A DNA stretch of 35,998 nt from Bacillota bacterium (GTDB taxonomy: Bacteria > Bacillota > UBA994): the NCBI GenBank assembly GCA_018725535.1, contig QLUS01000003.1:1-35998 (forward strand). Direction: 5' to 3'. This document shows, piece by piece, positions 793 through 35,998 of the stretch. Numbering within the stretch: the stretch's first letter is position 1; every line of letters starts with the position of its first letter. The notes beneath the pieces are model-generated. The model was not told the DNA's origin, did no database searches, and saw only the letters and a list, made by a program, of their open reading frames with translations. A program made the translations under genes and the position numbers.

Positions 793-1589
793 ATGTGGAT
801 GGTGCTACGGATAAGACCGCGCGAACGGTGGCTGGCGCTGGCAGTAGGCCTAGGGTTACTATGGCAGCTGACAAACTTGTCCTACCCCGGCTGGCTGATC
901 AGGAACTTGGCGGCTGTGGCTACGACTGCCCGCCTAGTTCCTATTTACAGCGTAGAAAGGACAGAGAAAGGACTTTCTCTGTCCTTTGATGCTGCCTGGG
1001 GTGCCGACTACACCGACGACCTCCTAGCCATATTGCACCGCCATCAAGACGCGCTACGTTTTTTCTTGTGGGCTTTTGGGTAGAAAAGTATCCCGAGGTG
1101 GCGCAGCGCATCGCCAGAGCGGGGCACGAAATTGGAAATCACTCTTCTACCCACCCCAACCTCGTCCCGCTTACGATGGAGCAGATAGCGCTTGAGGTAT
1201 CCCGCACGCACGACATCATCAAGGAGACAGCGGGGCGGACGCCGCGCCTCTTTCGTCCCCCGTTTGGTGCCTACAGTAACCGTGTAATTGAAACGCTAAC
1301 TGCCTTGGGTTACCACACCATCCAATGGAGTATCGACTCCCTAGATTGGCGTAAGGAGGCCACCCCGCAGTCGATTTTCACGCGCGTCACGACGCGGGCT
1401 CATCCCGGTGCCATCGTCTTGTTTCACAACAACGCCGCCTATACACCAGAGGCTCTAGAGCCCATCCTCACGCACCTGCGCGAACAGGGTTACAGCTTTG
1501 TGCCTATCGGCGAGTTGCTCTTGGCAGATAACTGGTATGTCGCCCCCACGACCGGTCAGCAACGCCGCAAGGCCCAAGGCAGCCGCTAG
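793..1589 (+). pseudogene. pdaB: Polysaccharide deacetylase (PdaB-like sporulation protein), frameshifted near 1048
   Basis: RBS GGAGG at 781-785 and ATG at 793. N-terminal TM segment plus 'VPIYSVER..KGLSLSFDAAWG' lie in one frame. 'RATFFLVGFWVEKYPE...HEIGNHSSTHP...FRPPFG...QWSIDSLDW...IVLFHN' lie in another. One base is missing at CAA-GA-CGC (1045-1052). Confidence 0.8.
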
Positions 1590-2743
1590 ACTACTGAAGG
1601 CTCGTCAAAGAGCTCGCCCCGCGCAAAGCGCCCTAAATCCATTTTTTCTATGGGCAGCGAGGCCGGGAGGCCTAGAACGCTCTCGGCCAGCAACACGCCG
1701 GTCATGGGTGCTAACATAAACCCGTGACCGCTGAAACCTACCGCTAAAAATAACCCAGGCACCTCGGGAACCGCACCTAAAATTGGAGTGCGGTCCGGTG
1801 TCATGTTGTACAAGCCTGCCCATTGGCGCACGACGCGGATGCCTTTAAGTGGAGGCAAAAGCCACGTGATTTTCTGCGCCATCTCTTCCGCAAACTGCCA
1901 CGTAGAGCGACTGCTGTACCCCGGCTTTTCCGCCGCGTCCCCAAGCCCCATAATGAAACTCCCGTGCGGCGTCTGTTGGCAGTAAATATGGTGGTGAAAA
2001 GACATGACCATGGGCCCTTGCATTGGTGCCACGGGTTCGGTCACAAGAATCTGGTGACGCTCCGAGTACGTAGGTATGTCTACTCCCGCCATAGCGGCAA
2101 TGTCCTTAGACCATCCGCCTGCCGCATTAACTACGACCGGCGTAGCAATATAGCCCCCCGTGGTCTTAACCCCGACGATGCGCCCTTCGCCTGCACCGCC
2201 GCGTCGAATGCCTAATACCTCGGTGTTCGTGTATATTTTAACGCCGAGACGGCGTGCCGCCTGAGCGTAGGCGTCAGTGACATGAAAGGGATTACAGTGC
2301 CCGTCGGTTTGATTAAAGGTGGCTCCGAGGAGGCCCTCGGTGTTAAGATGCGGCACTATCTCCCGCGCCTCTGCCGGGGTGCAGAGCTTTACCCCTAAGC
2401 CAAAGCTGCGTTGTAGATTTACGTTCTTCTGGAATTGCTCCCACCCGGCGGGCGTGTAAGCTAGGAGCAAGTACCCGCCTTGTTTAAACTCAATATCTCC
2501 GTCATAGTCGAGGTCTTCGTTCATGGTTTCAAACCTTTTGACGCTGGCGATGGACATACGCAGGTTCATTTCCGTGCCCCACTGCTGCCGTACTCCTGCC
2601 CCGCAGCGCCCGGTAGCCCCGCTGGCTAGGTAATCCCGCTCTAACACCACTACGTCCGTGCACCCGCGTTTGGCTAGCTCGTAGGCGATGGCCACCCCGT
2701 TTACGCCTCCGCCGATAACTACTACCTCGGCGCTACTGTGCAT
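1586..2743 (-). CDS. FAD-dependent oxidoreductase, DAO family (proline dehydrogenase / sarcosine oxidase beta-subunit-like)
   Basis: GGGVNG Rossmann motif, 'GATGRCGAG', 'YNMTPDRTPILG', 'GFSGHGFMLAP'. The start is probably ATG 2743, downstream of GAGGAGG. Confidence 0.9.
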   Translation of the reverse strand: MHSSAEVVVIGGGVNGVAIAYELAKRGCTDVVVLERDYLASGATGRCGAGVRQQWGTEMNLRMSIASVKRFETMNEDLDYDGDIEFKQGGYLLLAYTPAGWEQFQKNVNLQRSFGLGVKLCTPAEAREIVPHLNTEGLLGATFNQTDGHCNPFHVTDAYAQAARRLGVKIYTNTEVLGIRRGGAGEGRIVGVKTTGGYIATPVVVNAAGGWSKDIAAMAGVDIPTYSERHQILVTEPVAPMQGPMVMSFHHHIYCQQTPHGSFIMGLGDAAEKPGYSSRSTWQFAEEMAQKITWLLPPLKGIRVVRQWAGLYNMTPDRTPILGAVPEVPGLFLAVGFSGHGFMLAPMTGVLLAESVLGLPASLPIEKMDLGRFARGELFDEPSVV

Positions 2744-3032
2744 CCTTGCTGGCCTCCTCACTGCTGCCCGCCGCAATGCTCCCTAAGGTAATGGGTCGCG
2801 TGGGAGGACGATAGGTGCCGGGGAGTTGGTGTTTAAGCGGCGTTCCGGCTGCCTGCAGCTCCCGCTGCACTAGGGCCCGACACGTCTTCCCCTGACATGG
2901 TCCCATGCCTAAGCGCCCTATCCGCCTGAGTTCGTCAAGTGTGCGGTAGCCTTTGCTGATGAGTCTCTTTACGTCAGCTAAGGTCAGGTCCTCGCACCGA
3001 CAAACGATGATGTCCTTATCTTGTTCACTCAC
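2733..3032 (-). CDS. BFD-like (2Fe-2S)-binding protein (SoxA/HcnB C-terminal-like domain)
   Basis: 'IVCRCEDLT...GMGPCQGKTC...RPP' motif. GTG start at 3032 after AGGAGG. Confidence 0.85.
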   Translation of the reverse strand: MSEQDKDIIVCRCEDLTLADVKRLISKGYRTLDELRRIGRLGMGPCQGKTCRALVQRELQAAGTPLKHQLPGTYRPPTRPITLGSIAAGSSEEASKDAQ

Positions 3033-3543
3033 CTTCTGCACCTCCTAGGATGAAGAACCGAACTTCTCGCGCGAGCTCCTTTAGGACTGCTAGGTGCACC
3101 ACTGCAGTGCGGTCAAAGCTCGGCGGATTCTGCACCCGCACTACGCGTCCCACACCTACCTCTTGCCCGGCCCGGTTAAGCACCTTAACCTCATCCCCTG
3201 CTCTCGGCAGCGGCACAAATTCATAGGGTAATTTCAGGAGTGCCTCAGTGGGGCTGTAGTTCTCGTCAATGACAAATATGGCTAGTCCCGGACAGTTCGC
3301 TACACATATAGCGCAGCCGTTGCATTTTTCCCAGTCGATGATCGGTAAGTCATTGATGTCGTGAAACGCTTTGATCGCCTTCCTTGGGCAACAGGTGGCG
3401 CAAGGATTACAGGGAATGCGTTGGAAGCACTCCAAGACCGCTACCGCCCCGCTGGCCAAGCGTTCCTTGCCCGGGTAGACGGAGTCGACATCGCGGTTGT
3501 CTGGTACACCTGTGCGCTTAAGCTCTTTCTCCACTGTGCTCAC
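3025..3543 (-). CDS. 4Fe-4S dicluster ferredoxin subunit (proline dehydrogenase gamma-like)
   Basis: CFQRIPCNPCATCCP and CNGCAICVANCPG motifs, followed by a 'LPYEFVPLP..GDEV..LNRAG' domain. Confidence 0.85.
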   Translation of the reverse strand: MSTVEKELKRTGVPDNRDVDSVYPGKERLASGAVAVLECFQRIPCNPCATCCPRKAIKAFHDINDLPIIDWEKCNGCAICVANCPGLAIFVIDENYSPTEALLKLPYEFVPLPRAGDEVKVLNRAGQEVGVGRVVRVQNPPSFDRTAVVHLAVLKELAREVRFFILGGAEGE

Positions 3544-4625
3544 CTCGCCTCACCCTGTACTGCTGCTAGCCCAAGACGAGTCTTCTCTCCTTCGGGGCCA
3601 CTGCGGAGTTCCACAAGCTGCTCTCTCGCCGCGCGGATGCGCTCGCTTACATCGCTTGGGGCAAGTCCAATGTCCAACGTGGCTACGTAGCCCGCCAGCA
3701 ACCCCTCCACCATGGCACTGCTCGCCTCTTCAATCCCCGCTACATCGCCGGCGATAAAAATATACGGCTGACTGGTGCGCAAGCTCTCATCCCGCCAAGC
3801 AACATGGCCGCCTAGTTCCGGTATATACAGCATGCGGCAATCCGCTTGCCACAGCAGGTCAGACAAAGGGGACAGCCCTACTGCCAGACATATGACGTCA
3901 ACGGGGATTTTCTGTTCCGTACCCTTAATTGGCTGCCACGCTTGATCGAGTTGGCAGATCACTGCTCCCTCTACGCTATCTTGGCCGTAAGCCTCGAGAA
4001 TCGTGTGTGATGTAAGTATGGGCACTCCTGCCCGGCGCACTTTCGCGGCATGCACGAGATACCCGCCAATGCGAGGCGCGCCCTCCACAATCGCCGCAAC
4101 GCTTACCCCCGCCTGCAAGAGCTGATATGAAACAATCAGGCCAATATTCCCAGCTCCCACCATCAATACGCGCTGTCCCGGCTTAATGCCAAATACGTTC
4201 ATCAGAGTTTGCACGGCACCGGCACCATATACGCCCGGCAGGTCGTTTCCCTTAAAGGCTAGCATTTTTTCGCTCGCGCCTGTAGCCACGACAAAACGCT
4301 CGGCCTTAACCTTGCGATACTCACCTAGGCACTCTACGGTGAGCACGCCGTCATCGTAGAGGCCTAAGGCGGTGGTCTCCAGCCAGACCTCAATTGACGG
4401 GGTGCCTTGCACGGCTGTGGTCAGGGAGACCGCTATGTCTATCCCGCGTGTACCCGCTTGCTGCCTTTCCGAGCCAAAGAACATATGGGTTTGCTTAACT
4501 AGCTGTCCACCCAGGTGGTCGGCATTATCCAGCAAGAGCACAGACGCACCTCCGCTCGACGCGGCTAGCGCGGCGTTAAGGCCTGCGGGGCCGCCGCCAA
4601 TCACACAGATGTCAACCGTCTTCAC
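3540..4625 (-). CDS. FAD/NAD(P)-dependent oxidoreductase (proline dehydrogenase / sarcosine oxidase alpha-subunit-like)
   Basis: GGGPAG, 'LGGQLVKQTHMFFG', 'ATGA', 'VGAGNIGL', 'AGDVAGIEEA'. Confidence 0.9.
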   Translation of the reverse strand: MKTVDICVIGGGPAGLNAALAASSGGASVLLLDNADHLGGQLVKQTHMFFGSERQQAGTRGIDIAVSLTTAVQGTPSIEVWLETTALGLYDDGVLTVECLGEYRKVKAERFVVATGASEKMLAFKGNDLPGVYGAGAVQTLMNVFGIKPGQRVLMVGAGNIGLIVSYQLLQAGVSVAAIVEGAPRIGGYLVHAAKVRRAGVPILTSHTILEAYGQDSVEGAVICQLDQAWQPIKGTEQKIPVDVICLAVGLSPLSDLLWQADCRMLYIPELGGHVAWRDESLRTSQPYIFIAGDVAGIEEASSAMVEGLLAGYVATLDIGLAPSDVSERIRAAREQLVELRSGPEGEKTRLGLAAVQGEAR

Positions 4626-4927
4626 GCGAGAACCCCCCTCCCGTGCTGCTGTTTAACCACCATGCCCGCCTTGAGCTTCGTGACGCAGACACGCACGTTA
4701 GGAACGCCGTCAACTACCATCAGACAAGAGCTACACGTGCCGATGGCACAAAAAAAGCCGCGCGGACGGTGCAACACAGCGCTCTTACTCAGCACCTTCA
4801 CTCCGGCCGCGTGTAACGCCGCCGCGATTGTCTCTCCCTCGTACCCCGCGAGCTCCTGCTCCTCGTAGGTGAACTTAATTTCCTTTCCCCGCCTAAAGCT
4901 AAGAATGGGATGCTCCGATATCCGCAA
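4622..4927 (-). CDS. 2Fe-2S iron-sulfur protein (Fer2_4; HcnA / SoxA N-terminal-like)
   Basis: 'GETIAAALHAAG...RPRGFFCAIGTCSSCLMVVDGVPNVRVC'. TTG start after a G-rich RBS. Confidence 0.88.
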   Translation of the reverse strand: MRISEHPILSFRRGKEIKFTYEEQELAGYEGETIAAALHAAGVKVLSKSAVLHRPRGFFCAIGTCSSCLMVVDGVPNVRVCVTKLKAGMVVKQQHGRGVLA

Positions 4928-4948
4928 TCAAATACCCCCCTATATTAA

Positions 4949-4980
4949 TGGAACGATGGGGACGGTTCTTTTTTGTTCCA
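4949..4980. repeat. REP-like extragenic hairpin with GGGACGG core
   Basis: TGGAAC-gatggggacggttctttttt-GTTCCA. A similar element lies at 25879-25907. Confidence 0.5.
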
Positions 4981-5035
4981 CGGATTGGCGTGATGCTGAA
5001 GAGATTGGCAGGAAGGGAAGGAGTGCAAAACAAAA

Positions 5036-5197
5036 TTACACGTCCCCCGTGCCGGGGCTGGCAAACCGCGACAACTTCCGCTTCAGGCCAAACACATGAC
5101 AGAGCGGGCACTGTATCTCACTGCCATCAGTTCCTAGACGACAGAGCTTGGTCACGTTCATACTGCACTTTGGACACTCAAATTCGTAAACGGGCAT
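5036..5197 (-). CDS. FmdB-family zinc-ribbon protein
   Basis: MPVYEFECPKC...CPLC...LKRKLSRFA. The true start is likely ATG 5197, after GAGG. Confidence 0.85.
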   Translation of the reverse strand: MPVYEFECPKCSMNVTKLCRLGTDGSEIQCPLCHVFGLKRKLSRFASPGTGDV

Positions 5198-5231
5198 ATG
5201 TTCGGCCTCTTTAGCCACTCTACGCGCGCTC

Positions 5232-5909
5232 TTACCCAACACCTATGGTAATCAAAACTGCAAGCAGAATCGCAGGCAACAGATTGCCTACGCGGATTTT
5301 CTTGATCTCCAATACGTTAAGACCAATCGCTACGATAAGGATACCACCCGTGGCCGTCATCTCGGTCACAGCCGCAGGTGTAAGCCACTGCGAAATCCAA
5401 GCCGCCAGTAGCGTAATCGCGCCTTGGTAAAAAAACACCGACAGACTCGAAAGCGCTACGCCTAAACCAAGCGTAGAAGCAAACACCACTGCCGACACGC
5501 CATCCAACATGGCCTTGGCGTAGAGGGTGGCGTGGTTGCCGGTTATGCCGCTCTCTAAGCTCCCCATAATGGCCATCGCCCCTACACAATAGATCAAGCT
5601 GGTAGTGACAAAGCCCTGCGCGAGTTTACCTTTGCCGCGCACGTAGCGTTTCTCTACCAGTGCTGCCCCTCTGTAGAGGCGCCCCTCTATGTCCATCCAC
5701 TCCCCTGCTAGGCCACCTAGCACAAGGCTGGCGATAACTATGAGAGGATTAGCGGTTTTTAGAGCCATCGTCAACCCAATTACAGCTACAGAAAGTCCTA
5801 GCCCGTGCATAACCGTGTCGCGGCTTTTTTCTTTAACGACACCGCCCAGCAGCGCCCCTAGTATCCCTCCTGCCAGAATCGCCAGAGCGTTAACAACAGT
5901 GCCCAGCAC
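5232..5909 (-). CDS. DUF554 (YdfK/YqgA-like) membrane protein
   Basis: 'MLGTVVNALAI', 'GFVTTSLIYCVGAMAIMGSLESG', 'KAMLDG', 'IRVGNLLPA'. Confidence 0.88.
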   Translation of the reverse strand: MLGTVVNALAILAGGILGALLGGVVKEKSRDTVMHGLGLSVAVIGLTMALKTANPLIVIASLVLGGLAGEWMDIEGRLYRGAALVEKRYVRGKGKLAQGFVTTSLIYCVGAMAIMGSLESGITGNHATLYAKAMLDGVSAVVFASTLGLGVALSSLSVFFYQGAITLLAAWISQWLTPAAVTEMTATGGILIVAIGLNVLEIKKIRVGNLLPAILLAVLITIGVG

Positions 5910-7063
5910 TAAACTCTCTCCTCCGCGATGCGCTCTATGGCCTCGGCCACTTCATCGATTTCTTTTATAGTAGAAAAGGGGCCGGGACTGAGGCGCACTA
6001 TGCCTTGGCCTAAAGTGCCAAGCGTCTCGTGCGCAAGCGGCGCGCAGTGCAGCCCCGCCCGCACGGCAATGCCGAAGGAGGCGTCCAAGATATGGGCTAC
6101 CTCCGTTGACCCCATGCTCCCTATGTTAAAGGCGACTATTGACGCACCTTGGCCATTCCCATACAGCGTCACGCCCGGGATGGAAGCGATACGCGAGCGC
6201 AACTGCGCAGCTAAACTTACCTCGTGCGCTCTAATAGTGTCGACGCCGTGTGCGGCGAGATAGCTGAGTGCGCGCGAAAGTCCCACTATGCCCACCGCGT
6301 TAAGCGTGCCGCTCTCTAGCCGATCCGGCAAGATCGCAGGCATCTCGGATAGTTCCGAAAAGCTTCCCGTACCCCCATATATGATCGGGACAATCTCTAC
6401 GCCCGCCCGCACATACAGAAATCCAGTGCCCGTAGGTCCAAGCAATGACTTATGCCCCGGCGCGGCTAGCAAATCTATCCCCAATGACTCAACCGCGATA
6501 GGCAGTGCCCCCGCAGTCTGCGCGGCGTCAACGAGGAGCAGCACATTAGCTTCCCGCGTAATCGCCGCAACATCGGCTATTGGCATCAGGGTTCCGCAAA
6601 CATTAGAAGCGTGCGTGAGCACCACGAGCTTGGTGTTGCTTTTTATGGCTTGCTGCACCGCCGTTGCCTCAAGCTTGCCGTCCCCCGTACATGGGAGAAC
6701 GGTTAGTTCTACCCCACGGCGAGACAGCTCGCGCAGCGGACGGATAACGGCGTTATGCTCCATGGAAGTCGTGATGCAGTGATCCCCCGGCACAAGTAGC
6801 CCAAAAATGGCCATGTTCAGGGCATGGGTAGCGTTGGCCGTGAAAACTACCCGCGCTGCGTCCGACGCCCCGATCAGCTCAGCTAACTGGCTACGGCACG
6901 CAAACACCGCACGACTCGCCTGCAGGGATAGCGCGTGTCCGCTGCGCCCGGGACTACCGGAACCATGCGCAAGCAACGCAGCCATCGCCTCCGCGACCCC
7001 GGGAGCCTTTGGCCAACTGGTAGCAGCGTTGTCCATATAGATTGTATCACGCAAATTCGCCAC
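5909..7063 (-). CDS. Cysteine desulfurase-family PLP enzyme (aminotransferase class V)
   Basis: 'YMDNAATSWPK', 'SMEHNAV', 'DAAQTAG', 'APGHKSLLGPTG', 'RAGLHCAPLAH'. This gene commonly lies downstream of parB in Clostridia. Confidence 0.92.
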   Translation of the reverse strand: MANLRDTIYMDNAATSWPKAPGVAEAMAALLAHGSGSPGRSGHALSLQASRAVFACRSQLAELIGASDAARVVFTANATHALNMAIFGLLVPGDHCITTSMEHNAVIRPLRELSRRGVELTVLPCTGDGKLEATAVQQAIKSNTKLVVLTHASNVCGTLMPIADVAAITREANVLLLVDAAQTAGALPIAVESLGIDLLAAPGHKSLLGPTGTGFLYVRAGVEIVPIIYGGTGSFSELSEMPAILPDRLESGTLNAVGIVGLSRALSYLAAHGVDTIRAHEVSLAAQLRSRIASIPGVTLYGNGQGASIVAFNIGSMGSTEVAHILDASFGIAVRAGLHCAPLAHETLGTLGQGIVRLSPGPFSTIKEIDEVAEAIERIAEERV

Positions 7064-7922: not shown

Positions 7923-8673
7923 TCACCTCTCGAGCAAGTTCCATGTAAACTTCGGTGCCTTTAGATTTGGGGTCATACGCCAGGATGGACTGGCCGTAAC
8001 TCGGAGCCTCGCTAAGGCGCACATTGCGCGGAATAACGGTAGCATACACCTTGTCCTTAAAGTACGCCCTCACCTCGTCGACGACTTGTGAGGCCAGATT
8101 AGTGCGCGGGTCAAACATGGTAAGCAAAGCGCCTGAAACCACTAAGCCAGGGTTTAGGTGCCGCTGTACCAAGGACACGGTGTTCATCAGCTGGCTCAAA
8201 CCCTCTAAAGCATAATACTCACACTGCACGGGGATCAACACGCCGTGCGCCGCAGTCAAAGCGTTTAACGTCAACAGCCCGAGCGAAGGCGGGCAGTCAA
8301 TCAGTATGTAGTCGTAGTTCTGCCGCACATGCTGCACTGCCTCACGCAACTTTACCTCTCGCTGCATGGCCAACACTAACTCTATCTCCGCACCCGCGAG
8401 TTGAATCGTGGCTGGCACCAGTTCTAGCCTAGGCGTATTGGTCGGCAGAATCACGGCCTCAATGGGAACACCATCGATCAACACGTTGTAGATGCACTTT
8501 TTGAGGCGGTAGCGGTTAACTCCTAGCCCGGAAGTAGTGTTGCCTTGGGGGTCAATGTCCACCACCAACACGCGCTTTGACAGCTCCGCCAATGCAGCCC
8601 CTAAGTTAACCGCCGTAGTGGTCTTGCCGACGCCCCCTTTTTGATTGACGATTGCCATTACCTTCGCTGTCAT
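7909..8673 (-). CDS. parA: Chromosome partitioning ATPase ParA/Soj
   Basis: Deviant Walker A 'NQKGGVGKTTT', 'DIDPQGN', 'DCPPSLGLLT', 'IPRNVRLSEAPSYG'. Confidence 0.97.
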   Translation of the reverse strand: MTAKVMAIVNQKGGVGKTTTAVNLGAALAELSKRVLVVDIDPQGNTTSGLGVNRYRLKKCIYNVLIDGVPIEAVILPTNTPRLELVPATIQLAGAEIELVLAMQREVKLREAVQHVRQNYDYILIDCPPSLGLLTLNALTAAHGVLIPVQCEYYALEGLSQLMNTVSLVQRHLNPGLVVSGALLTMFDPRTNLASQVVDEVRAYFKDKVYATVIPRNVRLSEAPSYGQSILAYDPKSKGTEVYMELAREVIARG

Positions 8674-8715
8674 GTCACCAAAACTCCCCTCGGCAGTTGC
8701 ATTTCGCGTCGCCCG

Positions 8716-15750: not shown

Positions 15751-16034
15751 TGTCGAAACGTGTCGATTATGCACACCTGTTGATAACCCTGTGGATAAGC
15801 TGTGGGTTTTGTGGTATAACTGCAAAAGGAGTCGCATCACAGGAGCAGGTCTGTAGGGCCGTGTCAAAAACGCATATATTTTCGCCCCACACATTTGTTC
15901 TCCACAGCTGTGGATTAGTCTGTGGATATCTTATGTGTCGAATCGTCACCTTTGCTGTCGTTTCAGCTATTCCCCATATGGTTTTTTCCCTTTTCACCGT
16001 CTATCCACATCTGATGTGGATGAATTGTGGGCAA
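15751..16034. promoter_or_regulatory. oriC part 1: DnaA-box cluster between rpmH and dnaA, with Spo0A-type boxes
   Basis: DnaA boxes: TTATGCACA 15767, TGTTGATAA 15778, perfect TGTGGATAA 15790, TTCTCCACA 15898, TGTGGATTA 15909, TGTGGATAT 15921, CTATCCACA 16001, TGTGGATGA 16015. TGTCGAA occurs at 15751 and 15936. Confidence 0.9.
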
Positions 16035-16125
16035 GTTTCTCCTCGTTTCTTCTCGCATCGCGGTAGGATTCGACTCCCCCCGCGTCGAAAGGAACAATTC
16101 GACCTTTTGCATTGGAGGAATGGTA

Positions 16126-17454
16126 ATGTCTACATCCTCGCCTGCGCTTTGGCAAGCAGCCCTAGAACTTTTGCAGACCAATCTAAGCAAGCATCAGTTC
16201 GACACTTGGCTGTTGCCCTGCAAAGCCGTTTCACTCCAAGGCCAAACTATGTATATTTTGGCTGCCACGGAATTTAACCGCAACTGGCTGGAAAACCACT
16301 ATGCCGGCGCAGTACAAAAGGCTCTGTCCACCGTTGCGGGAAAAGAACTTAACATAAAGTTTGTCTCCCACAAGGATGATCTCCCGCTTGTTCCTCCCGT
16401 GGTCGAGCGCACTCAGGATGACGCAGCTCTAGGACTTAACCCTCGCTATGTCTTTGACAGTTTTGTCATCGGCGAGAGCAACCGCTTCGCCCACGCCGCC
16501 TCCTTGGCTGTGGCCGAGGCTCCGGGGAGAGCTTACAACCCGCTGTTTATCTATGGGGGAGTGGGTCTTGGCAAGACTCACCTGATGCATGCCATCGGTC
16601 ATTTTGCCCTATCCCGCTTTCCACTAAAACGAGTGCTGTACCTCTCTTGCGAAAAGTTCACTAACGACTTTATCTCCTCAATTCAGCAGCGGAAGACAAC
16701 TGAGTTTCGTGCGCGGTACCGTTCTATTGACCTCTTGCTCATAGATGACATTCAGTTTCTCACGGGCAAAGAACAGACTCAAGAAGAGTTCTTTCACACT
16801 TTTAACGCCCTGCATGGATCAAACAAACAAATCATCATCTCTAGCGACCGTCCCCCAAAAGAAATTGCCACACTAGAAGATAGGCTGCGCTCACGCTTTG
16901 AATGGGGACTTATTACAGACATCCAACCACCAGATCTCGAAACGCGCGTGGCCATTCTCTGTCAAAAAGCGGAACAGGATAACTTTCGCGTTCCTTTAGA
17001 GCTAATGGCCTACATTGCCGCCCGGATTCACAGTAACATCCGCGAATTAGAGGGCGCACTGATTCGCATTATGGCCTACGTGGCTTTTAGTAAGCGTCAG
17101 GTAACACGAGAGCTTATCGACGAGGTTCTAAAAGGCCTTTTCCCCCAGGAAAGACAGCGGTCCATTACCATAGAGGACATAAAGAAAACAGTAGCTCTCC
17201 ATTTTGGACTGAAAGTAGATGACCTTACCGCCCAGAAGCGCACCCGTTTAGTCACTCATCCTCGCCAAGTGGCTATGTACCTCTGCCGCAAGTTAACCGC
17301 CGCCTCTCTCCCCCGCGTCGGTGAAGAATTTGGCGGCAGAGATCACACCACGGTTATCCATGCCTGTGAAAAAATCGAACAAGACCTTGCGAAGGACAAT
17401 GGTTTCCAAAAGGTATTAAAAGAGATTGAGCAAAAGTTATTCACACTTAGTTAA
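16126..17454 (+). CDS. dnaA: Chromosomal replication initiator DnaA
   Basis: 'YNPLFIYGGVGLGKTHL', 'LLIDDIQF', 'FGGRDHTTVIHA'. Start taken as ATG 16126 because GGAGG lies at 16114-16118. Confidence 0.98.
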   Translation: MSTSSPALWQAALELLQTNLSKHQFDTWLLPCKAVSLQGQTMYILAATEFNRNWLENHYAGAVQKALSTVAGKELNIKFVSHKDDLPLVPPVVERTQDDAALGLNPRYVFDSFVIGESNRFAHAASLAVAEAPGRAYNPLFIYGGVGLGKTHLMHAIGHFALSRFPLKRVLYLSCEKFTNDFISSIQQRKTTEFRARYRSIDLLLIDDIQFLTGKEQTQEEFFHTFNALHGSNKQIIISSDRPPKEIATLEDRLRSRFEWGLITDIQPPDLETRVAILCQKAEQDNFRVPLELMAYIAARIHSNIRELEGALIRIMAYVAFSKRQVTRELIDEVLKGLFPQERQRSITIEDIKKTVALHFGLKVDDLTAQKRTRLVTHPRQVAMYLCRKLTAASLPRVGEEFGGRDHTTVIHACEKIEQDLAKDNGFQKVLKEIEQKLFTLS

Positions 17455-24833: not shown

Positions 24834-25100
24834 GTGAAACCAACCCTGAGATTCTTTATGCTGCCGATGTGTCCGCACTGCAAGAACGCCGTGCGCTGGA
24901 TGGACGAGCTGCGCGCCGAAAACCCCGCGTACGCGAGCATACCGGTTGTCACCATCAACGAACGCGAACAACCGGACCTAGCCAACCAATATGAGTATGA
25001 TTTAGTCCCGACCTACTATCTCGACAAGGTCAAACTCCATGAGGGCGTGGCCAGCAAAGAAAAGATACGGGCAGCGCTTGACCGCTACCTCGCCACCTAG
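24834..25100 (+). CDS. Glutaredoxin/thioredoxin-like protein
   Basis: CPHC motif, cis-Pro 'LVPT', AGGAGG RBS before the GTG start. Confidence 0.85.
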   Translation: MKPTLRFFMLPMCPHCKNAVRWMDELRAENPAYASIPVVTINEREQPDLANQYEYDLVPTYYLDKVKLHEGVASKEKIRAALDRYLAT

Positions 25101-25151: not shown

Positions 25152-25192
25152 TCCCGACACCATTCGACAGCAAGTGTCGAAAATTATCGAAA
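25152..25192. promoter_or_regulatory. Cluster of Spo0A (0A)-box-like motifs upstream of the hypothetical secreted gene
   Basis: TTCGACA (25163-25169) and TGTCGAA (25175-25181) form an inverted pair, flanked by degenerate CCCGACA and TATCGAA. An extended -10 TGcTATAAC lies near 25230-25238. Confidence 0.5.
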
Positions 25193-25266: not shown

Positions 25267-25848
25267 ATGCGAAGCGCGTTTTAGCTGCTACTGATGCTCC
25301 TAGTAGTCAGCGCGGTTGTGACCCATGCCGTGGCGGCTAATCCCGGCTCAAGTGGACAAGCCCCCAGTCAAAGCAAGGCATCGCCCCAAGTGAGTAGCGA
25401 GGAGTTAGCGCGTTATGAAAAACAGGGCCATACCCCCTCAGATGTCTACACCGCTTTGAGCCTTCTGGAACAAACTGGTATCCCCATCGCCAAGTGGCTG
25501 GCTACCAGAAAGGCGGGTAAGACTTGGCCCGAGGCCATCGAGCAGTTAGCTAAGGGAGTTAAATTGGAGCGCAAGCCACTAGACCCAGAGAAATCGCGCA
25601 CGCTCACACAGCAGGAAATCCTTCAACTAATGCGTGAAGGCTACGCAGGCGAGGACATCAGAGAGGCCAGCAGCATCCTGTTTAACTACGGCGGAGACGT
25701 CAGACACTTACTGCGACTGAAGCAGAGCGGTCGCGCTTGGACAGACATTGGCCTAGGATTAAAGCCCTTGGGGAACGCGGGAGAACCGCGCAAACCGGGC
25801 GGAGCCTTGCAGATATTAAGGCCAGCCAAAACAGAGTCGTCGCAGTGA
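25267..25848 (+). pseudogene. Hypothetical exported protein with ~50-aa internal repeats, probably decayed
   Basis: ATG 25267 MRSAF-TAG(25282-84)-LLLMLLVVSAVVTHAVAA reads as one signal peptide broken by a stop. Two repeats are visible ('..G(H/Y)...D(V/I)..A..L....G.....L..(R/K)..G(K/R).W'). The C-terminus appears to shift frame near 25755. Confidence 0.5.
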
Positions 25849-25878
25849 GATTTGGGGACAGAGAGACCACACCTTCCG

Positions 25879-25907
25879 GAAGCAATAGGGACGGAGCCTT
25901 TTGCTTC
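25879..25907. repeat. REP-like extragenic hairpin with GGGACGG core
   Basis: GAAGCAA-tagggacggagcctt-TTGCTTC has perfect 7-bp arms and the same architecture as 4949-4980. Confidence 0.5.
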
Positions 25908-25913
25908 ACAAGT

Positions 25914-26038
25914 CGCTCTCCGCTTTCCGCCTTCCGCTTGTCAGAAGTCGCACTTCGCACTTTTATAGAAGCGGAAAGCTGCAAGCTGCAAGCGGAAAGC
26001 GGAAAGCCACTCCGTAGTTCACGATTCACGATTCCCTC
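25914..26038. repeat. Array of imperfect heptamer tandem repeats forming an inverted repeat
   Basis: CGCTCTC-CGCTTTC-CGCCTTC-CGCTTGT; TCGCACT x2; AAGCGGA-AAGCTGC-AAGCTGC-AAGCGGA-AAGCGGA-AAGCCAC; TTCACGA x2. Positions 25922-25940 pair with 25989-26007 at 18 of 19 bases. Confidence 0.8.
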
Positions 26039-26055
26039 GCGAAAGGCGGAATACT

Positions 26056-27348: not shown

Positions 27349-27416
27349 ACCCGCGGCAAGTCTTGGCATTATGCACAAACTGTGTGACAATTGTTTGGTA
27401 AGAGAGGAGTGGGAAC

Positions 27417-29804: not shown

Positions 29805-29820
29805 GTGTGCCGCGCCCTCT

Positions 29821-31788
29821 TTATTCGCGTGTGCGGGGTGTTTTGGTCCACGCGATAGGATGCCTTCCCATCGCTTTTAGCACCATGGCGCTGGTATAAG
29901 GCACCGGAAAGAAGAAGGCGGCAAACGGCAGGAAGCACAGCTCCATGGCTACACCTACATTGCCATACCGCGTCAAGGGGCGGCCGGTGCGGTCAATGTG
30001 GGTGTAGTACCGATAGAAGGCATAAAAAGTAAAGCTAACGTACACCAGACGCAAGACATTAAGGAGCATGCGGTACACACTCGGCAGCACACTAGAGTCA
30101 GCGTTGCCGGTCAAGTACAGCACCAGCATAGTTGGCGGCAACAGCGTCACCGCTTGGTAGAATGTCCATTCCACAGGGCCTTTCAGCGCCAGCTGGCGTA
30201 GCAACCTCGTTTTGCGGGCTTTGCACCCCTCGGCCAAGCGAACCTTATCTAAGACCTGTAGGTGACCGGTGCCCCAGCGCAGTCGCTGTCTAAAGAAAGA
30301 CTTGAAGTGTGGCGGCGTTTGCTCGCTACTGGCGTAAGGCAGGTAGTCCGGCCAAGCGCCTGTGGTGAGGTAGGCACGAGTGCCCAGTTTTAGGTCTTCG
30401 GTGAGGATTTGATGGTCGTAACCCTTAAGCTCGACGAGGAGGTCGTAGTCCACATACAAATTGGTACCCCCCGCGAAGGGCAGTCGGCGAAAGACTACGG
30501 GCAAATACCAGTCATGGGCTATAGCCTGATACAGAGAGGCGATCTTGCTAAATGGCCCTATCGCATAGAAATTGCGCACTTGGAAAACAGGGCCCTGCCA
30601 AATGGCAGTACCGCTATCAGTAAGCTTTTTGTGCGCCACGTACAGTAAAACATCGCGTCTGGGACGGCTTTCGGCACCGTAGAAGCCGCAGACGGTAGTT
30701 TTTGGGGATACACTCCGCGCGAGGGCGTAGTTTAGCGCACGACCCTTCGTCGAAGGGACAGCAGCCCCTGTCAGCTCCCCGGGATACTGCCCATCGTAGT
30801 CAAATGGAACGGAAGTGTGCTTGAGCACGGGGGAACACGAGCCGATTTCTTGCTGCACACGGACCAGCACGTCTTGCGTGGTGGGAAAACAATATGCGTA
30901 AAGCTCTAGAGCTACTTCCTCTCCCTCTCCCCGGCTTAACATCTCCCGCAGGCGAGTCACCAAATCCGCAGCATAAGGGTGGTAAAGCTCGACAGCAAGT
31001 CCTGTGTCACGCGATGGTTGGCTTTGGTAGTGAAACTAATTACGGAACGCAGCAAGCGTTCATCTCGTTCACCGCACATTCTCGCAAAGGCCGCGACCAC
31101 CGGTAGCGTCAAGCAAAGATATAGGGTACAGACGAGCAATCTCCTTGTCATCGCATTCCGGGAAGGCCCGCCGGAGCAAGCAAAAAACTCTACCGATGCT
31201 TAGGCGACCGCGCGCAGCGATCAAATCCCCTGCCAACGTAGCGATGATGTCCCAGCAGTGCCATGTGTCGCCTCGTGTTAGCACCAGTGGGGTGAGCCAA
31301 GCGTGATCGCGCAGATCGCGCGTGCGGTACTCCCGCAGGGCCATTTCGCTTAGCACTCCGAGCGTAAGTACGCGGACATCAGTACGTCTAGCTTCCTCCG
31401 GAAGCTTGCCGCCCATAAAGGCCAACGTTTCCCGTACGACGATAGGGCGCAGGCGCGCACCTTCTAGGGCTTCTTTCTCGTCCGTCACCACTATGATTTC
31501 GTAGGCGGTTTTGGGATAATTGAGCGCAAACATGTGTCTAACGGTCTTCTCAATGACTTGCGCTTCGTTGCGGGCAGGGACTAAGATAGAGAAGAAAGGT
31601 ACTTCCTTTCCGTTCTTTGCTGCGAGAGCCAGGATGCCAGCCTCGTTCAGAGCAGGTCTTACGCGCCAATAGCGGCCCTCGCTGTATCGTTTCCACAAGA
31701 AAAAGCGGCAAAACATGAGAAAGAGTACGACATACATGGCTACAGCAACTAAGTAGATGGTTTGCGGTGTGGTCAAAATCGTCTTCAC
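29821..31788 (-). pseudogene. GT2-family membrane glycosyltransferase with two frameshifts (about 31122 and 30970)
   Basis: The N-terminal part has a TM segment, 'SILVPARNEAQVI' and 'VVTDEKE'. A middle segment in a second frame reads 'YLCLTLPVVAAFARM...'. The C-terminal part has 'STKGRALNY', 'GTNL', 'TEDL', 'RQRLRW' and 'WTKTPRT'. The D of the expected 'YDAE' motif is G. Confidence 0.8.
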
Positions 31789-31870
31789 CTCGGCGCACTA
31801 TTCTCCGTCAATAGTGTGTACCGCCACAAAGACGCTATCCGACGTCGCTAATGGAAAGGAATGGGTATAA

Positions 31871-32833
31871 ATGGCTGCGCCATCCCCGGTCATTCGCCGC
31901 TCCGATGTGCTAACCGCCCGCAAGGTGTTAGGCTCACGCGTGACTCGTACCCCGCTTATCTTGGCCGAAGCTGCCAGCGACATGCTAGAAGCGCGCATTT
32001 ACCTTAAGCTTGAATGCCATCAACGAACAGGAGCGTTCAAATACAGAGGCGCGTTGTATGCGGCCACCATGCTGCTTAAAGGTAAAGGCGGCGGGTTGAT
32101 CACCGCCTCAAGTGGCAACCATGCCCTTGGAGTGTGTATGGCCGCCGCTGAACTTGGTGTTAGGGCCACCGTCGTCATGCCAACAACCGCGCCTTTGGTA
32201 AAGATAGAACGCGCTAGGGCCTTAGGTGGAGAAGTCATCCTCCACGGCAAAGTGTACGACGAGGCTCGCGCACATGCGGAGGAACTGATCCGCTCACGGC
32301 AGGCGGTTTTCCTCCCTAGCTTCGACCATCCGCTGATCATGGCGGCTCAAGGCACGGTAGTGCTTGAGATAGAAGAAGAGCTACCCACCCTTGATACGCT
32401 TGTAGTCCCGATAGGGGGCGGCGGCCTGTTAGCCGGAGCGCTGGCAGCGAGGTCGGACCTAGCCGTATGGGGTGTACAAGCGATGGGGGCAGACTCCTTC
32501 GCGCGCTCTTTAGCTGCCGGGTGTCGTGTGGCTATCCCTCGCACCTCCACCTTTGCCGACGGCATCGCTCTGCTCGCCCCAGGAGAGCTGCCACTAACCC
32601 AAGCCCTTACCACTCCTCCAGAGATGGCAGTAGTCACCGATGATGAAATTCTAGCCGCCATGCGCCACTTGCTACTCTACGAACGGGTAGTCGCAGAGCC
32701 AGCAAGCGCGGCAGCCTTGGCGGCTCTGCTCACTGGCAAGATCCCCATTCGCGGGCGGACGGTGGCCGTGGTAATAACAGGCGGAAACGTGATGCCAGAG
32801 ATTATCTCCGCGGCACTGCGCGGCAGCTTATAA
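31871..32833 (+). CDS. Threonine/serine ammonia-lyase (PLP-dependent, catalytic domain only)
   Basis: 'LKLECHQRTGAFKYRGA', 'ASSGNHA', 'VPIGGGGL', 'EPASAAALAA', 'ITGGN'. Confidence 0.9.
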   Translation: MAAPSPVIRRSDVLTARKVLGSRVTRTPLILAEAASDMLEARIYLKLECHQRTGAFKYRGALYAATMLLKGKGGGLITASSGNHALGVCMAAAELGVRATVVMPTTAPLVKIERARALGGEVILHGKVYDEARAHAEELIRSRQAVFLPSFDHPLIMAAQGTVVLEIEEELPTLDTLVVPIGGGGLLAGALAARSDLAVWGVQAMGADSFARSLAAGCRVAIPRTSTFADGIALLAPGELPLTQALTTPPEMAVVTDDEILAAMRHLLLYERVVAEPASAAALAALLTGKIPIRGRTVAVVITGGNVMPEIISAALRGSL

Positions 32834-32850
32834 TACAAGGGGGATACGAT

Positions 32851-33354
32851 TTGAACTATCTTACGGCTACGGAGTTCTCCGTAATTATGGTTTTGCTCCT
32901 AGCGATTTTTGCCATCGGGCTGTCGACGCACGCAATCCGCGAGTTTCGGGCAGCGCGGCGCATGTACCGCACGTTTATGACGGGCACGACTGGGGGGAAC
33001 CTTGAAACGTTGCTTATGACCTTAGGGGAGCGCACGGCGCGCCTAGAGGGAGACGGCCTGTCGCAGGCGAGGCTGCTGCGCGAGATTGAGCAAAGGCTGC
33101 CTCTGGCTGTACAGCAAGTGGGGCTAGTGCGATTTAACGCCTATAGCGATACGGGAGGCGAGCTGAGCTTTGCCCTCGCCTTGCTGGATGCTTCCGGCAG
33201 CGGCGTAGTAATCAGTTCCCTCTACGGCAGAGCGGAGGCACGCGTTTACGCCAAGCCCATTAACGAAGGGCAGTCGACCTTCCCATTGAGCAGCGAGGAG
33301 ATTGCCGCAGTTGCACAAGCTAAGGCAAAAGCTAAGTCGTCGAAAAAAATGTAA
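32851..33354 (+). CDS. DUF4446 family membrane-anchored protein
   Basis: N-terminal TM segment, 'VGLVRFNAYSDTGGELSFALALLD...GVVISSLYGR...YAKPI..G.S...LS.EE'. Confidence 0.85.
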   Translation: MNYLTATEFSVIMVLLLAIFAIGLSTHAIREFRAARRMYRTFMTGTTGGNLETLLMTLGERTARLEGDGLSQARLLREIEQRLPLAVQQVGLVRFNAYSDTGGELSFALALLDASGSGVVISSLYGRAEARVYAKPINEGQSTFPLSSEEIAAVAQAKAKAKSSKKM

Positions 33355-33377
33355 TCAAACTGTGATTTTCGGGAGGA

Positions 33378-33397
33378 TTCGCGATACGAGTGGCGAA
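33378..33397 (+). promoter_or_regulatory. Putative sigma-H promoter upstream of the M23-bactofilin operon
   Basis: GGAGGATTC-spacer-GGCGAAT resembles the sigma-H consensus AGGA...GAAT. The RBS GAGAGGAG lies downstream near 33416-33423. Confidence 0.35.
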
Positions 33398-33431
33398 TCA
33401 TACTTCCTACGATAAGAGAGGAGTGGTGGTA

Positions 33432-34397
33432 TTGCACCCAAAACCAAGGGGTCCAAGTTCTGGGCTAGGGCAAGAATTCACCATTATGATTATCCCCCAC
33501 GGCCACGAGGAGACGTATGCGTTTCGATTGTCACAGCGGTGGGTGCAATGGGCGGGCATCGCCCTCATTGTGCTTTTGATTAGCTCCATTAGTCTGGTGT
33601 ACTCGTTGCGCCAGACCAAACTGCAATTAGCCACTTACCATGGCCTTTTAGCGGAAAACCGCCAGCAACAGGAGCATATTTTATTTCTCGCGCGGCAGAC
33701 TACAGAGCTCCAGGGGCAACTAGCCGAGATTCAAGCGCTCGACAATTCCATTCGCACCATGATGAGGCTTACCCCTGCCTCTGTCACAGCGGCGGTAACG
33801 CGCCTGACAGAAGACCAAAGCACCGCGCGTGAGGCGCGACTTAGCCTCCTTAGCCGCGGCACCAGTCTAGCCGCCACGATTTTGCGCACGCAGCAGAGCA
33901 TCGAGGAAATTAAAGAAGCTATTCCCGAGACCGAAGGTAGCCTGCAAGACCTTGAGCGCAAGGTGGAGCTGCAGCGCCGACGCGAAGCAGCCACTCCATC
34001 GCTTTGGCCAACCAGCGGCGACGTAACCTCAGGCTTTGGGCGCAGGCGCTCGCCATTTGGCGGTTCCTGGGAACATCATGAAGGCGTAGATATAGCAGCC
34101 CCGCGCGGCGCCTCAGTTTTTGCCGCCGCCAACGGGATTGTGCGTGTCGCCGGTTGGAACGGCGGCTACGGCAATGTCGTATTTATTGACCACGGGTTTG
34201 GCATGAGTACGGTTTACGCCCATTTGCACCGCATTAGTGTGCGTGTCGGGCAGCAGGTAACCAAAGGGCAGCAAGTAGGTTTGGTGGGCAGCACAGGCCG
34301 CTCTACCGGTCCACATCTCCACTATGAAGTCCGTGTGAATGGTCAGGCCATTAACCCCCTGCGGTTTTTACCCCCTACTACTACAGAGGGCAGGTGA
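33432..34397 (+). CDS. M23-family peptidoglycan endopeptidase (TM segment, coiled coil, M23 domain)
   Basis: 'FTIMIIPH' N-terminal motif, TM segment, coiled coil, 'HEGVDIAA', 'GYGN', 'YAHL', 'GRSTGPHLHYEV'. Start placed at TTG 33432 from RBS spacing. Confidence 0.9.
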   Translation: MHPKPRGPSSGLGQEFTIMIIPHGHEETYAFRLSQRWVQWAGIALIVLLISSISLVYSLRQTKLQLATYHGLLAENRQQQEHILFLARQTTELQGQLAEIQALDNSIRTMMRLTPASVTAAVTRLTEDQSTAREARLSLLSRGTSLAATILRTQQSIEEIKEAIPETEGSLQDLERKVELQRRREAATPSLWPTSGDVTSGFGRRRSPFGGSWEHHEGVDIAAPRGASVFAAANGIVRVAGWNGGYGNVVFIDHGFGMSTVYAHLHRISVRVGQQVTKGQQVGLVGSTGRSTGPHLHYEVRVNGQAINPLRFLPPTTTEGR

Positions 34398-34807
34398 ATG
34401 TTCTGTTCGGACAAAGTAAGGCGCGTGCAGATGTCAAAGATGAGCGGGCCAATGACAAAATAGACACCATTGTCGGCGCAGGCGCGGTTTTTACGGGCGA
34501 TCTCGATATTAAGGGCACTCTGCGGGTAGATGGCAAATATGAAGGTAAGATTACGAGTTCCGGCGATGTGGTGATCGGCGAAAGCGGGCAGCTTGTGGCT
34601 ACTGTGCAGGCGCGTAACCTGCAGGTGGCTGGCACTGTCAAGGGCGGGATTAAGACATTCGGTGTACTCGAAATCTCGTCCACGGGCAAAGTGTACGGCG
34701 ACATAGAAGTAGGTAAGGTCATCATCGCAGACGGTGCCATCTTTCAAGGGCAATGCCGAATGAACAGCGCCGAAGGGCAATCCGTACCCCCCGCGAAAAA
34801 AGAGTAG
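34394..34807 (+). CDS. Bactofilin (polymer-forming cytoskeletal protein)
   Basis: 'DTIVGAGAVFTGDL...LRVDGKYEGKI...VIGESG...GKVYGDI...IIADGAIFQGQCRM'. GTGA overlap with the M23 gene. Confidence 0.92.
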   Translation: MNVLFGQSKARADVKDERANDKIDTIVGAGAVFTGDLDIKGTLRVDGKYEGKITSSGDVVIGESGQLVATVQARNLQVAGTVKGGIKTFGVLEISSTGKVYGDIEVGKVIIADGAIFQGQCRMNSAEGQSVPPAKKE

Positions 34808-34813
34808 CAGAGA

Positions 34814-34837
34814 GCCCAAAGCCAGTGCGCTTTGGGC
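34814..34837 (+). terminator. Hairpin after the bactofilin gene (terminator or mRNA-stabilising stem)
   Basis: GCCCAAAGC-cagtgc-GCTTTGGGC is a perfect 9-bp stem, but the U-tract is weak. Confidence 0.4.
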
Positions 34838-34860
34838 CCTGATGTTTTGGAGGACATTGC

Positions 34861-35772
34861 GTGCAAGAAATAGCATTAATTGTAAATCTAACCGCTGGCT
34901 ACGGCAAGTGCCGATTAAAGTATCCTGAAGTGACAGCCTACTTAGAGCAACATGATGTCAAGGTAAAGAGCTTTTTTACGGAGAAGCGAGGACACGGCGA
35001 GGAACTAGCACGTCAAGCAGTCCGAGAGGGGTTTGACGTAGTTGTATCCATGGGAGGCGACGGCACACTCAACGAGGTCGTAAACGGCGTGGCAGGGTCA
35101 TCGGCGACACTTGGGTTTATCCCTGCGGGTGCCGGCAATGACTTTGGCCGGACTTTCGGACTTAAGAATGGCGAGGTCACCAAGGCGTGTCATGTGCTTT
35201 TGGACGGGCATGCGCGCGCTGTAGATTTGTGTCGGATCGACGCCCGGTATTTTATAAACGTCGCCGGGGCTGGCTTTGACGCTGAGGTCGGACATATGGC
35301 CAATGTTTGGGGTAAGCGCTATTTCTCGGGAGCTACCGCCTATATCGCCTCAATTTTACGCCAATTAGTCGCGTTTTCGCCGCGCGAGATGATAATCGAG
35401 CTGGATGAGCAGCGTATCTCTACTAAGGTTTGGATGGTGGCGGTAGCTAACGCGCGCTACTTCGGGGGCGGATTTATGATTGCCCCCACCGCAGAAATAG
35501 ATGACGGCTTACTTGACGTCTATATTATTCAAGAGACTTCGAAGGCGGGGCTCCTCATGGTGCTGCCGCGGGTGATGACGGGCGGCCATGTTTCTCATCC
35601 GGCAGTTCTGTTCTATCGGGCCAAACGTGTGAAACTAAGTTCCCCGTACGTGCTTGCGGCGCAAGCCGACGGCGAGCTAGTAGACCACCTGCCGCAGGAG
35701 TTCGCGATAACGGGCGAAAAGATCAACATGATCCTGCCTAGATTAGCTGGGCCGTCTGGACTCCCACGCTGA
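34861..35772 (+). CDS. Diacylglycerol kinase-family lipid kinase (YegS/BmrU-like)
   Basis: 'IVNLTAG', 'GGDGTLNEVVNG', 'IPAGAGNDF', 'GFDAEV', 'YFGGG', 'DDGLLD', 'ADGE'. Confidence 0.92.
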   Translation: MQEIALIVNLTAGYGKCRLKYPEVTAYLEQHDVKVKSFFTEKRGHGEELARQAVREGFDVVVSMGGDGTLNEVVNGVAGSSATLGFIPAGAGNDFGRTFGLKNGEVTKACHVLLDGHARAVDLCRIDARYFINVAGAGFDAEVGHMANVWGKRYFSGATAYIASILRQLVAFSPREMIIELDEQRISTKVWMVAVANARYFGGGFMIAPTAEIDDGLLDVYIIQETSKAGLLMVLPRVMTGGHVSHPAVLFYRAKRVKLSSPYVLAAQADGELVDHLPQEFAITGEKINMILPRLAGPSGLPR

Positions 35773-35998
35773 GGCAAACGTCAGAATGCCATCGGCTATA
35801 GTTTGGGCGAGTCGATATACGAGGTAGAGGCGGGTGTTTTGCAGCACAAAAGAGTTGTGGTGCTTGGCGCTGCGCGGGGCGGTAACTTCGTGTAGGTTAG
35901 TGGCGTGCACCGGCTGCTCAGGTGTGCCGTAAACACACAAGCCGGGCGGCTTTTTGTCCTTAAGCAATGTTCCAATGATGGGACCGAGGGCGTCACCC
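35743..35998 (-). pseudogene. yyaC: Spore protease YyaC (DUF1256) 3' part, with a large in-frame internal deletion; 5' end outside the window
   Basis: Translation from 35997: GDALGPIIGTLLKDKKPPGLCVYGTPEQPVHATNLHEVTAPRSAKHHNS|FVLQNTRLYLVYRLAQTIADGI. Both flanks are YyaC-like, but the central 'IAVDACLG...PGAGV...VGD...GIVNV' block is absent. Confidence 0.75.

Follow-up and report, generated by a model that had tools for sequence, protein, structure and literature searches.

The window analysed here, a stretch of 35,998 nucleotides (nt), is the entire contig C133 of G000, a Bacillota metagenome-assembled genome (MAG), and its gene content is that of a replication-origin region of Bacillota type. 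Lesions in this window affect, among other genes, the sporulation-linked genes pdaB and yyaC. Analysis of the whole genome and of its relatives indicates that G000 probably represents an uncultured lineage that descends from endospore formers and stopped sporulating very recently, with its sporulation regulon now at the pseudogene stage. The original prediction, based on the window alone, had proposed a lineage in the course of losing sporulation. It gains support from broken copies of Spo0A, SigE, SpoIIGA, SpoIVA and others, and from the enrichment of sporulation genes among the broken genes of G000.

G000 comprises 1,747,989 bases in 209 contigs (N50 12 kb, 55% G+C, stated completeness 95%). 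It was compared with four genomes of the same genus (G001 to G004); the family as a whole includes 10 genomes.

Sporulation genes in G000 and its relatives

Fifteen sporulation families, picked before any result was available, were searched in G000 to G004, and Spo0A and SpoIVA were additionally searched in all 10 family genomes. Four of the 15 are broken in G000 (Spo0A, SpoIVA, SpoIIE and SpoVT), four were not found (SigG, the SpoIID orthologue, SpoIIIAA and SpoIIIAE), three lie at contig ends and are open as far as they are present (GPR, SpoIIM and SpoIIR), and the remaining four are intact (SpoVAD, DpaA, SpoIIID and one small acid-soluble spore protein, SASP). A TAG in DpaA that had been counted as a lesion turned out to be the natural stop codon and was discarded. 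In Spo0A, located on contig C132, the Spo0A_C match lies within an open frame of 209 amino acids (aa) as against 264 aa in relatives, and three-frame translation placed a frameshift after residue ~54, directly before LDIIMPHLDG. SpoIVA, on contig C68, is spread over three frames, and SpoIIE and SpoVT are both frameshifted. A second, intact spo0A, spoIVA or sigE was not detected anywhere in the 1.75 Mb of G000. The gene census against G004 described below added 11 further named sporulation genes that are broken or partial.

Among the congeners, G003 has all 15 families and G004 has 14 of them, every one with an open frame. None of the 15 was found in G001, which is 90% complete. G002 occupies a middle position: Spo0A carries an internal deletion, SpoIVA is present only as a fragment, SigG is truncated, SpoIID contains a stop, and DpaA is fragmented; four families (SpoIIIAA, SpoIIIAE, SpoVAD and SpoIIR) were not found, while SpoIIE, GPR, SASP, SpoIIID and SpoVT are open. 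SigK-like matches occurred only in G003 and G004 among these five genomes, and neither the spoIIIA genes of the chosen set nor sigK was found in G000 or G002. G000 presents gene-level features expected of an asporogenous descendant of spore formers: the set is open in its relatives (15/15 in G003 and 14/15 in G004), Spo0A is inactivated, and most of the core genes are broken or missing.

Trees of gyrA and lon placed G000 and G002 as sisters with support of 100/100, and the two genomes carry differing lesions in the same sporulation pathway. G001 joined the sporulation-intact G003, with weak support (66/95 and 70/73). Within the sister genus, G009 (1.7 Mb) lacks Spo0A and SpoIVA and retains only fragments of pdaB, whereas all three are present in G008 (2.4 Mb), to which it is very closely related; sporulation thus seems to have been lost in the family a second time and independently. 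The genomes whose sporulation set is damaged or missing (G000, G001, G002 and G009) measure 1.4–1.9 Mb and most of those with an intact set 2.2–2.5 Mb; G003 has its intact set in 1.7 Mb.

Sporulation genes are over-represented among broken genes

The frequency of broken genes was scored in a census that used 1.058 Mb (46%) of G004 as reference. From this sequence 994 open reading frame (ORF) genes were called with a codon-usage score and searched against G000 with tblastn. Matches were chained, and stops near gene ends were ignored because the G004 ORFs begin at the first possible start codon. The census returned 602 intact genes, 64 broken, 35 at contig ends, 19 partial, 180 absent and 94 with a paralogue only. 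Broken orthologues thus amount to ~8% (64/720, three of them false calls). The false calls, WecB, LysR and a LiaX-like protein, were recognised by the point at which the family match starts; they arose from N-terminal ORF extension and were dropped; a tandem chromate transporter is possibly a fourth.

The first census pass had yielded 60 broken and 23 partial genes; when these were annotated with NCBIfam, 13 broken ones proved to be named sporulation genes (Spo0A, SigE, SpoIIGA, SpoIVA, SpoIIP, SpoIVB, SpoVAC, SpoVAE, SpoVB, YqfD, Ger(x)C, SleB and PdaB), as did two partial ones (SpoIIIAG and YlmC/YmxH). SigE and SpoIIGA are located on contig C39. As a control, 145 genes were drawn at random from the 602 intact ones and scanned with Pfam, which revealed two sporulation-specific genes, SpoIIIAH and YpeB. 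The sporulation share is therefore 13/61 among broken genes and 2/145 among randomly drawn intact genes (odds ratio 19, Fisher p = 3e-6). The difference persists at p = 0.006 once eight borderline families (FtsK/SpoIIIE, RemA-like, two M50 peptidases, S41, LysM, Jag and DUF1779) are counted as sporulation among the intact genes. For the families chosen in advance, four of eight assessable ones are broken against 48/699 in the non-sporulation background (p = 0.0015). Sporulation genes are preferentially broken in G000, though not alone; the genome-wide survey and frameshift scoring that the original prediction called for thus found them damaged outside the window as well, and more often than other genes.

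Besides these broken genes, G000 has lost 44 genes of G004 by clean deletion, with the syntenic neighbours on both sides preserved. Among the 44 are SpoVS, GerA, a spore permease, a YheC/D ATP-grasp protein and a second deacetylase, together with Ku, both LigD parts, an oligopeptide transporter operon and a PTS transporter.

Lesions in the window

The original prediction had listed five damaged accessory genes in the window. Judged by sequence comparison with the three congeners G002, G003 and G004, four of the five lesions are real. At the left end, an ORF on the plus strand (1–714) that runs off the contig start matches ThrE profile positions 113–205 of 241 and then directly ThrE_2 positions 3–127 of 129 in Pfam. 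The three congeners encode ThrE and ThrE_2 separately, with the stop of one gene overlapping the start of the other. DNA alignment showed that the window lacks 107 nt relative to all three, with the junction at ~273–279, and in G002 this stretch is bounded by CGCTGTG direct repeats. The deletion joins a shortened ThrE in frame to ThrE_2, which bears out the fusion predicted at ~278.

The adjoining PdaB-like polysaccharide deacetylase pseudogene (772–1589, plus strand) is split between frames 772–1083 and 1068–1589. The frameshift predicted at ~1048 was traced to one base deleted between 1048 and 1049 (CAAG-ACG against CAAGT(A/G)CG), outside any homopolymer, in a gene that is open over 272–287 aa in the three congeners. 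Among NCBIfam families, TIGR02764 (PdaB) fits the G004 orthologue best, ahead of YlxY and PdaA, at 213.9 bits against a cut-off of 237.4; because this score falls under the cut-off, we call the gene PdaB-like.

Two deletions 148 nt apart disrupt a family 2 glycosyltransferase (GT2) pseudogene on the minus strand (29,821–31,788): one of 2 nt at ~31,121/31,122 and one of 1 nt at ~30,973/30,974. The congener genes are open over 647–662 aa. Processive family 2 enzymes are characterised by catalytic Asp motifs and Q-x-x-R-W. In the window gene, the Asp of GFYDAES in the congeners is replaced by Gly (GFYGAES, codon 30,676–30,678), while TED and QRLRW are still there; with this substitution and two breaks in the frame, the window gene departs from the processive type, and both frameshifts and the motif change of the original prediction are borne out. 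A G002-like relative in public sequencing runs carries an extra A at 30,972 in this gene.

At the right end lies a yyaC (DUF1256) remnant on the minus strand (35,743–35,998), whose product is usually labelled a spore protease. The predicted large internal deletion is a 165-nt in-frame gap at ~35,842–35,851 that sits between CAGCACAAA repeats and removes about one third of the DUF1256 domain. The window copy accordingly covers only positions 40–91 of 164 in PF06866, while the G004 orthologue matches positions 2–163 (5.6e-59). The 5' part of yyaC is on contig C201, the first 77 bases of which are the last 77 of the window.

The pdaB, GT2 and yyaC genes are all intact in G002. G001 lacks all three, as well as the PALP gene adjoining GT2, and the genes that flank the yyaC and GT2 sites are adjacent to each other in that genome.

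From 1586 to 24,824, oxidoreductase genes, DUF554, a cysteine desulfurase-like gene, parB/parA/noc-like genes, gidB, mnmG, mnmE, jag, yidC, yidD, rnpA, dnaA, dnaN, an S4-like gene, recF, a RemA-like gene, gyrB and gyrA match Pfam families over their full length without a break, as the original prediction had stated for the core genes. The rnpA-yidD-yidC-jag-mnmE-mnmG-gidB group and the par genes lie on the minus strand, and dnaA-dnaN-S4-recF-RemA-like-gyrB-gyrA on the plus strand (Pfam assignments). A Lon-like protease and an M23 peptidase of the window were considered as intact sporulation genes and dropped, as NCBIfam gave no sporulation equivalog for either. In G001, gyrA (C36:15460–18235) matches as two pieces, residues 2–493 and 518–812, with ~416 nt between them, that is, an insertion of this size inside an essential gene.

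Are the lesions real and fixed?

The ratio of non-synonymous to synonymous substitution rates (dN/dS) offered a check on relaxed selection, which the original prediction had invoked. In pairwise comparison with G002, dN/dS is 0.05–0.08 for gyrA, gyrB and the DAO oxidoreductase, 0.10 for pdaB and 0.12 for GT2, while intact neighbours range over 0.04–0.20. The two pseudogenes thus show no rise and no sign of long relaxation. The inactivations, if real, are very recent relative to the split of G000 and G002 (dS about 0.2–0.3). Unraised values fit very recent inactivation, but they would fit artefacts too, since the broken genes look like working ones.

Sequencing error, low coverage or collapsed strains could in principle have produced such lesions during assembly or binning while the cells carry intact genes. 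The assembly is in 209 contigs, a contig break 147 nt past the yyaC deletion could mark a variant bubble, and each lesion rests on one assembly of the G000 strain. A search of sequencing runs returned six runs from two studies, each with at most 0.17 of the words; the four that were examined, labelled as groundwater, hold a relative that is ~94% identical and has the indel signature of G002, not the G000 strain. An artefact is therefore excluded only indirectly, and the indirect evidence is of several kinds. Terminal 77-mers are common to 49 among 418 contig ends, as against 1–5 at k = 31, 55, 99 and 127; because contig ends share 77-mers far above other k, the assembly is a short-read k=77 de Bruijn graph. 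One-base indel errors outside homopolymers are uncommon in short-read assemblies. All five indels in the window are deletions (107, 1, 2, 1 and 165 nt), and both larger ones are flanked by short direct repeats that the sister's intact allele contains, as is typical of genuine slippage. GT2 alone has three separate lesions. Errors should be blind to gene function, yet the lesions cluster in certain genes and in one pathway: 19 genes carry at least two lesions where 5.1 are expected at a uniform rate, and the maximum over 5000 simulations was 15. Finally, in genomes that were assembled separately this pathway is likewise damaged (G002) or gone (G001 and G009). We consider an artefact very improbable.

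The lesions could also be real and be confined to part of a population that still sporulates as a species. The 77-mers shared between contig ends are typical of strain bubbles, and one such break falls inside yyaC. Against this, a single consensus assembly contains broken copies of many sporulation genes that are unlinked and spread over different contigs, and the 1.75 Mb hold no alternative intact spo0A, spoIVA or sigE. A polymorphism of this kind is quite improbable, if marginally less so than an artefact.

Decay beyond sporulation

Fixed and recent loss of sporulation remains the reading that we prefer, and a number of observations weigh against its simplest form, in which decay would be specific to this pathway. 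Only pdaB and yyaC among the five window genes are sporulation-linked. SpoIIIAH and YpeB are open in G000, in addition to SpoVAD, DpaA, SpoIIID and one SASP. The other broken genes in the census include MutS, pyruvate:ferredoxin oxidoreductase, FliF, FliD, a chemoreceptor, a Ca-ATPase, asparaginase, RnfG and an Mrp/Nuo-like subunit, and further PBP1A, PstS, Udk, FeoB, ornithine aminotransferase and ~18 proteins that have no family assignment. Because the reference set from G004 consists of our own ORF calls, some of its hypothetical members may not be genes. Moreover, 173 of the 274 G004 genes without a G000 orthologue fall at contig breaks, where absence cannot be called as deletion. Decay reaches mutS, smc, flagellar, transporter and non-homologous end joining (NHEJ) genes. 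The selective decay of sporulation-linked and accessory genes put forward in the original prediction holds in so far as sporulation genes are strongly over-represented; it needs correcting in that the erosion is wider and recent and extends to mutS and smc.

Two genes of DNA maintenance stand out. The mutS gene of G000 (C199:3133–5679) carries two frameshifts ~1070 nt apart, so that it reads in three pieces over two frames, with the middle third displaced and numerous stops in the wrong frame. G001 to G004 have an open mutS, and mutL, which adjoins it, is open in all five genomes. Inactivation of MutS or MutL would be expected of a mutator lineage, and in G000 it is MutS that is inactivated. 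The smc gene of G000 (C24:19388–22888) has four frameshifts; G002, G003 and G004 each have an open smc, and none was found in G001. Compared with G004, the G000 head domains are 91–95% identical and the coiled-coil pieces 60–68%.

Several further losses were seen in passing. On contig C177 of G000, fliF has a frameshift at ~residue 170 and fliD a stop; G001, G003 and G004 have an open fliF. The flhA gene of G000 is intact. One chemoreceptor (MCP) on C24 lacks one half. Ku and the LigD ligase and primase-polymerase, which lie at C10:86280–88889 in G004, are cleanly gone, so that the NHEJ system has been removed. The single-chain pyruvate:ferredoxin oxidoreductase (C199:18465–21179) has an in-frame TAG at ~residue 717 and is matched only as far as residue 908 of 1204; G000 has intact genes for multi-subunit 2-oxoacid oxidoreductases at other sites.

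These data raise the alternative of a non-specific genome erosion, due to the dead mutS, a small effective population size or both, in which sporulation genes are hit because they are numerous and currently dispensable. The ~8% of broken orthologues, the presence of mutS, smc and metabolic genes among them, the clean deletion of 44 genes of many functions and the unraised dN/dS of the window pseudogenes are all in its favour. It is countered by the ~19-fold enrichment of sporulation genes among the broken ones and by the congeners: G002 has an intact mutS and yet damaged Spo0A, SpoIVA, SigG, SpoIID and DpaA, and G001, with an open mutS, has none of the 15 sporulation families. Because both genomes keep mutS open, sporulation loss in the genus is independent of the mutS lesion. 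We regard erosion of this non-specific kind as an unlikely explanation.

An orphan ORF and intergenic elements downstream of gyrA

The fifth lesion of the original prediction, a stop in the signal peptide of a hypothetical exported protein, concerns an orphan ORF on the plus strand (25,267–25,848). A TAG at 25,282–25,284 does lie between in-frame ATGs at 25,267 and 25,294, the second of which opens a 184-aa ORF; that it breaks a signal peptide was not confirmed, the ORF being without a homologue. It matched no Pfam family, and among 182 candidates the single match, in one length class, was the ORF itself. The ORF is missing at the DNA level from G001 to G004. Segment 25,101–25,878 as a whole has no counterpart in G002 and is skipped by the contigs of the G002-like relative in all four public runs.

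Boxes resembling 0A sites were also predicted ahead of this gene. An inverted pair of TGTCGAA heptamers, which resemble the 0A-box consensus, is indeed present upstream of the ORF at 25,163–25,181. The heptamer count in the window is within chance (six seen and 3.65 expected, with 16 of 100 shuffles reaching six). Three of the six heptamers lie at 15,751–16,204, between rnpA and dnaA and at the beginning of the dnaA ORF.

Two other features were noted on either side of the orphan ORF. Directly after gyrA, an 88-aa thioredoxin/glutaredoxin-like ORF with a CPHC motif (24,834–25,100) is kept in G002 (84% DNA identity, dN/dS 0.07); at the thresholds applied, neither Pfam nor NCBIfam assigned it to a family. 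After the orphan ORF, a short repetitive intergenic stretch, cgctttccgccttccgctt...gcggaaagc (25,878–26,050), has dozens of matches across G001 to G004 at 85–100% identity and very high contig depth in the public runs.

Discussion

The lesions in G000 suggest how sporulation was lost. Small deletions, stop codons and repeat-mediated deletions have inactivated Spo0A as master regulator, the mother-cell sigma factor SigE, the protease SpoIIGA that processes it, and many morphogenetic, cortex and germination genes, while a few genes are as yet untouched; the window lesions in pdaB and yyaC would be part of this decay. Once selection on sporulation was relaxed, its large gene set would have offered a large mutational target. 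The loss would run inside a wider genome reduction that also hits motility, transport and DNA-maintenance genes. The mutS defect of G000 probably raised the input of small indels and led to a burst of young pseudogenes, which a deletional bias would then clear, as may already have happened in G001. The mutS lesion cannot have started the process, since sporulation functions have also gone from G002 and G001, where mutS is open.

A more far-reaching interpretation is offered tentatively, as somewhat less likely than not to hold. The genus could be a natural time series of endospore loss, with two species that have the full set, two sisters in which it was broken independently and one from which it has been purged. 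The decay in G000 would be driven by a recently dead mutS, with smc broken too; the loss would be mutational, that is, neutral and mutator-accelerated, rather than an adaptive deletion, and it would have been repeated independently in the sister genus (G009 against G008).

Sporulation genes in experimental B. subtilis populations are reportedly the subject of work by Maughan and colleagues from 2007. Four other published accounts provide points of comparison. Among gut Firmicutes, the 'Former-Spore-Formers' have lost sporulation repeatedly within spore-forming families, in connection with genome reduction and with spo0A status as the marker (Browne et al. 2021, PMC8340488). In the present family, too, a damaged or missing set goes with smaller genomes (1.4–1.9 Mb, against 2.2–2.5 Mb for most with an intact set). 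The present case differs in that the habitat label, taken from the runs of the relative, is groundwater and not gut, in that the genes are mostly fresh pseudogenes and not deleted, and in that G003 is intact at 1.7 Mb. A second account (PNAS 2026, PMC12890906) predicts pseudogenisation, frameshifts and partial pathway degradation under relaxed selection, the course expected of neutral loss, and treats its weight against adaptive deletion as unresolved. G000 shows the predicted frameshifts and small deletions; for its part, it is a natural uncultured lineage, and a mutS-dead species, a sister with other lesions and a third, purged species represent three stages.

In Bacilli and Mycoplasmatales, multiple independent losses of sporulation have accompanied reductive evolution from sporulating ancestors (PMC10868615). 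Those losses are old and extend to peptidoglycan, whereas the sampled cell-wall and division genes of G000 are intact. Pseudogene-rich genomes and a deletional bias have been described for the early phase of reductive evolution (Genome Biol Evol 2018, PMC6054270), and this is matched by the window indels, five of five being deletions, and by the ~8% of orthologues broken in G000; evidence of host restriction, which was not searched for, did not emerge in G000. A narrow literature search located no report that this lineage has lost sporulation.

Bacillota have often lost sporulation, and the loss is usually seen only after the genes have gone; the order of events and the roles of neutral and selective forces are therefore debated (PMC12890906). 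G000 is a new instance of this known process. Many of its sporulation genes still give matches, and for this reason presence/absence scoring of MAGs would call it a possible spore former; frame-aware checks are needed. What makes the case valuable is the early stage of the process and the presence, within one genus, of species whose set is intact, decaying or purged. As pseudogenes, the genes can still be read, which allows the first hits to be listed (among them spo0A, sigE/spoIIGA and spoIVA), and the lesions to be compared between the sisters G000 and G002 and related to the mismatch-repair defect.

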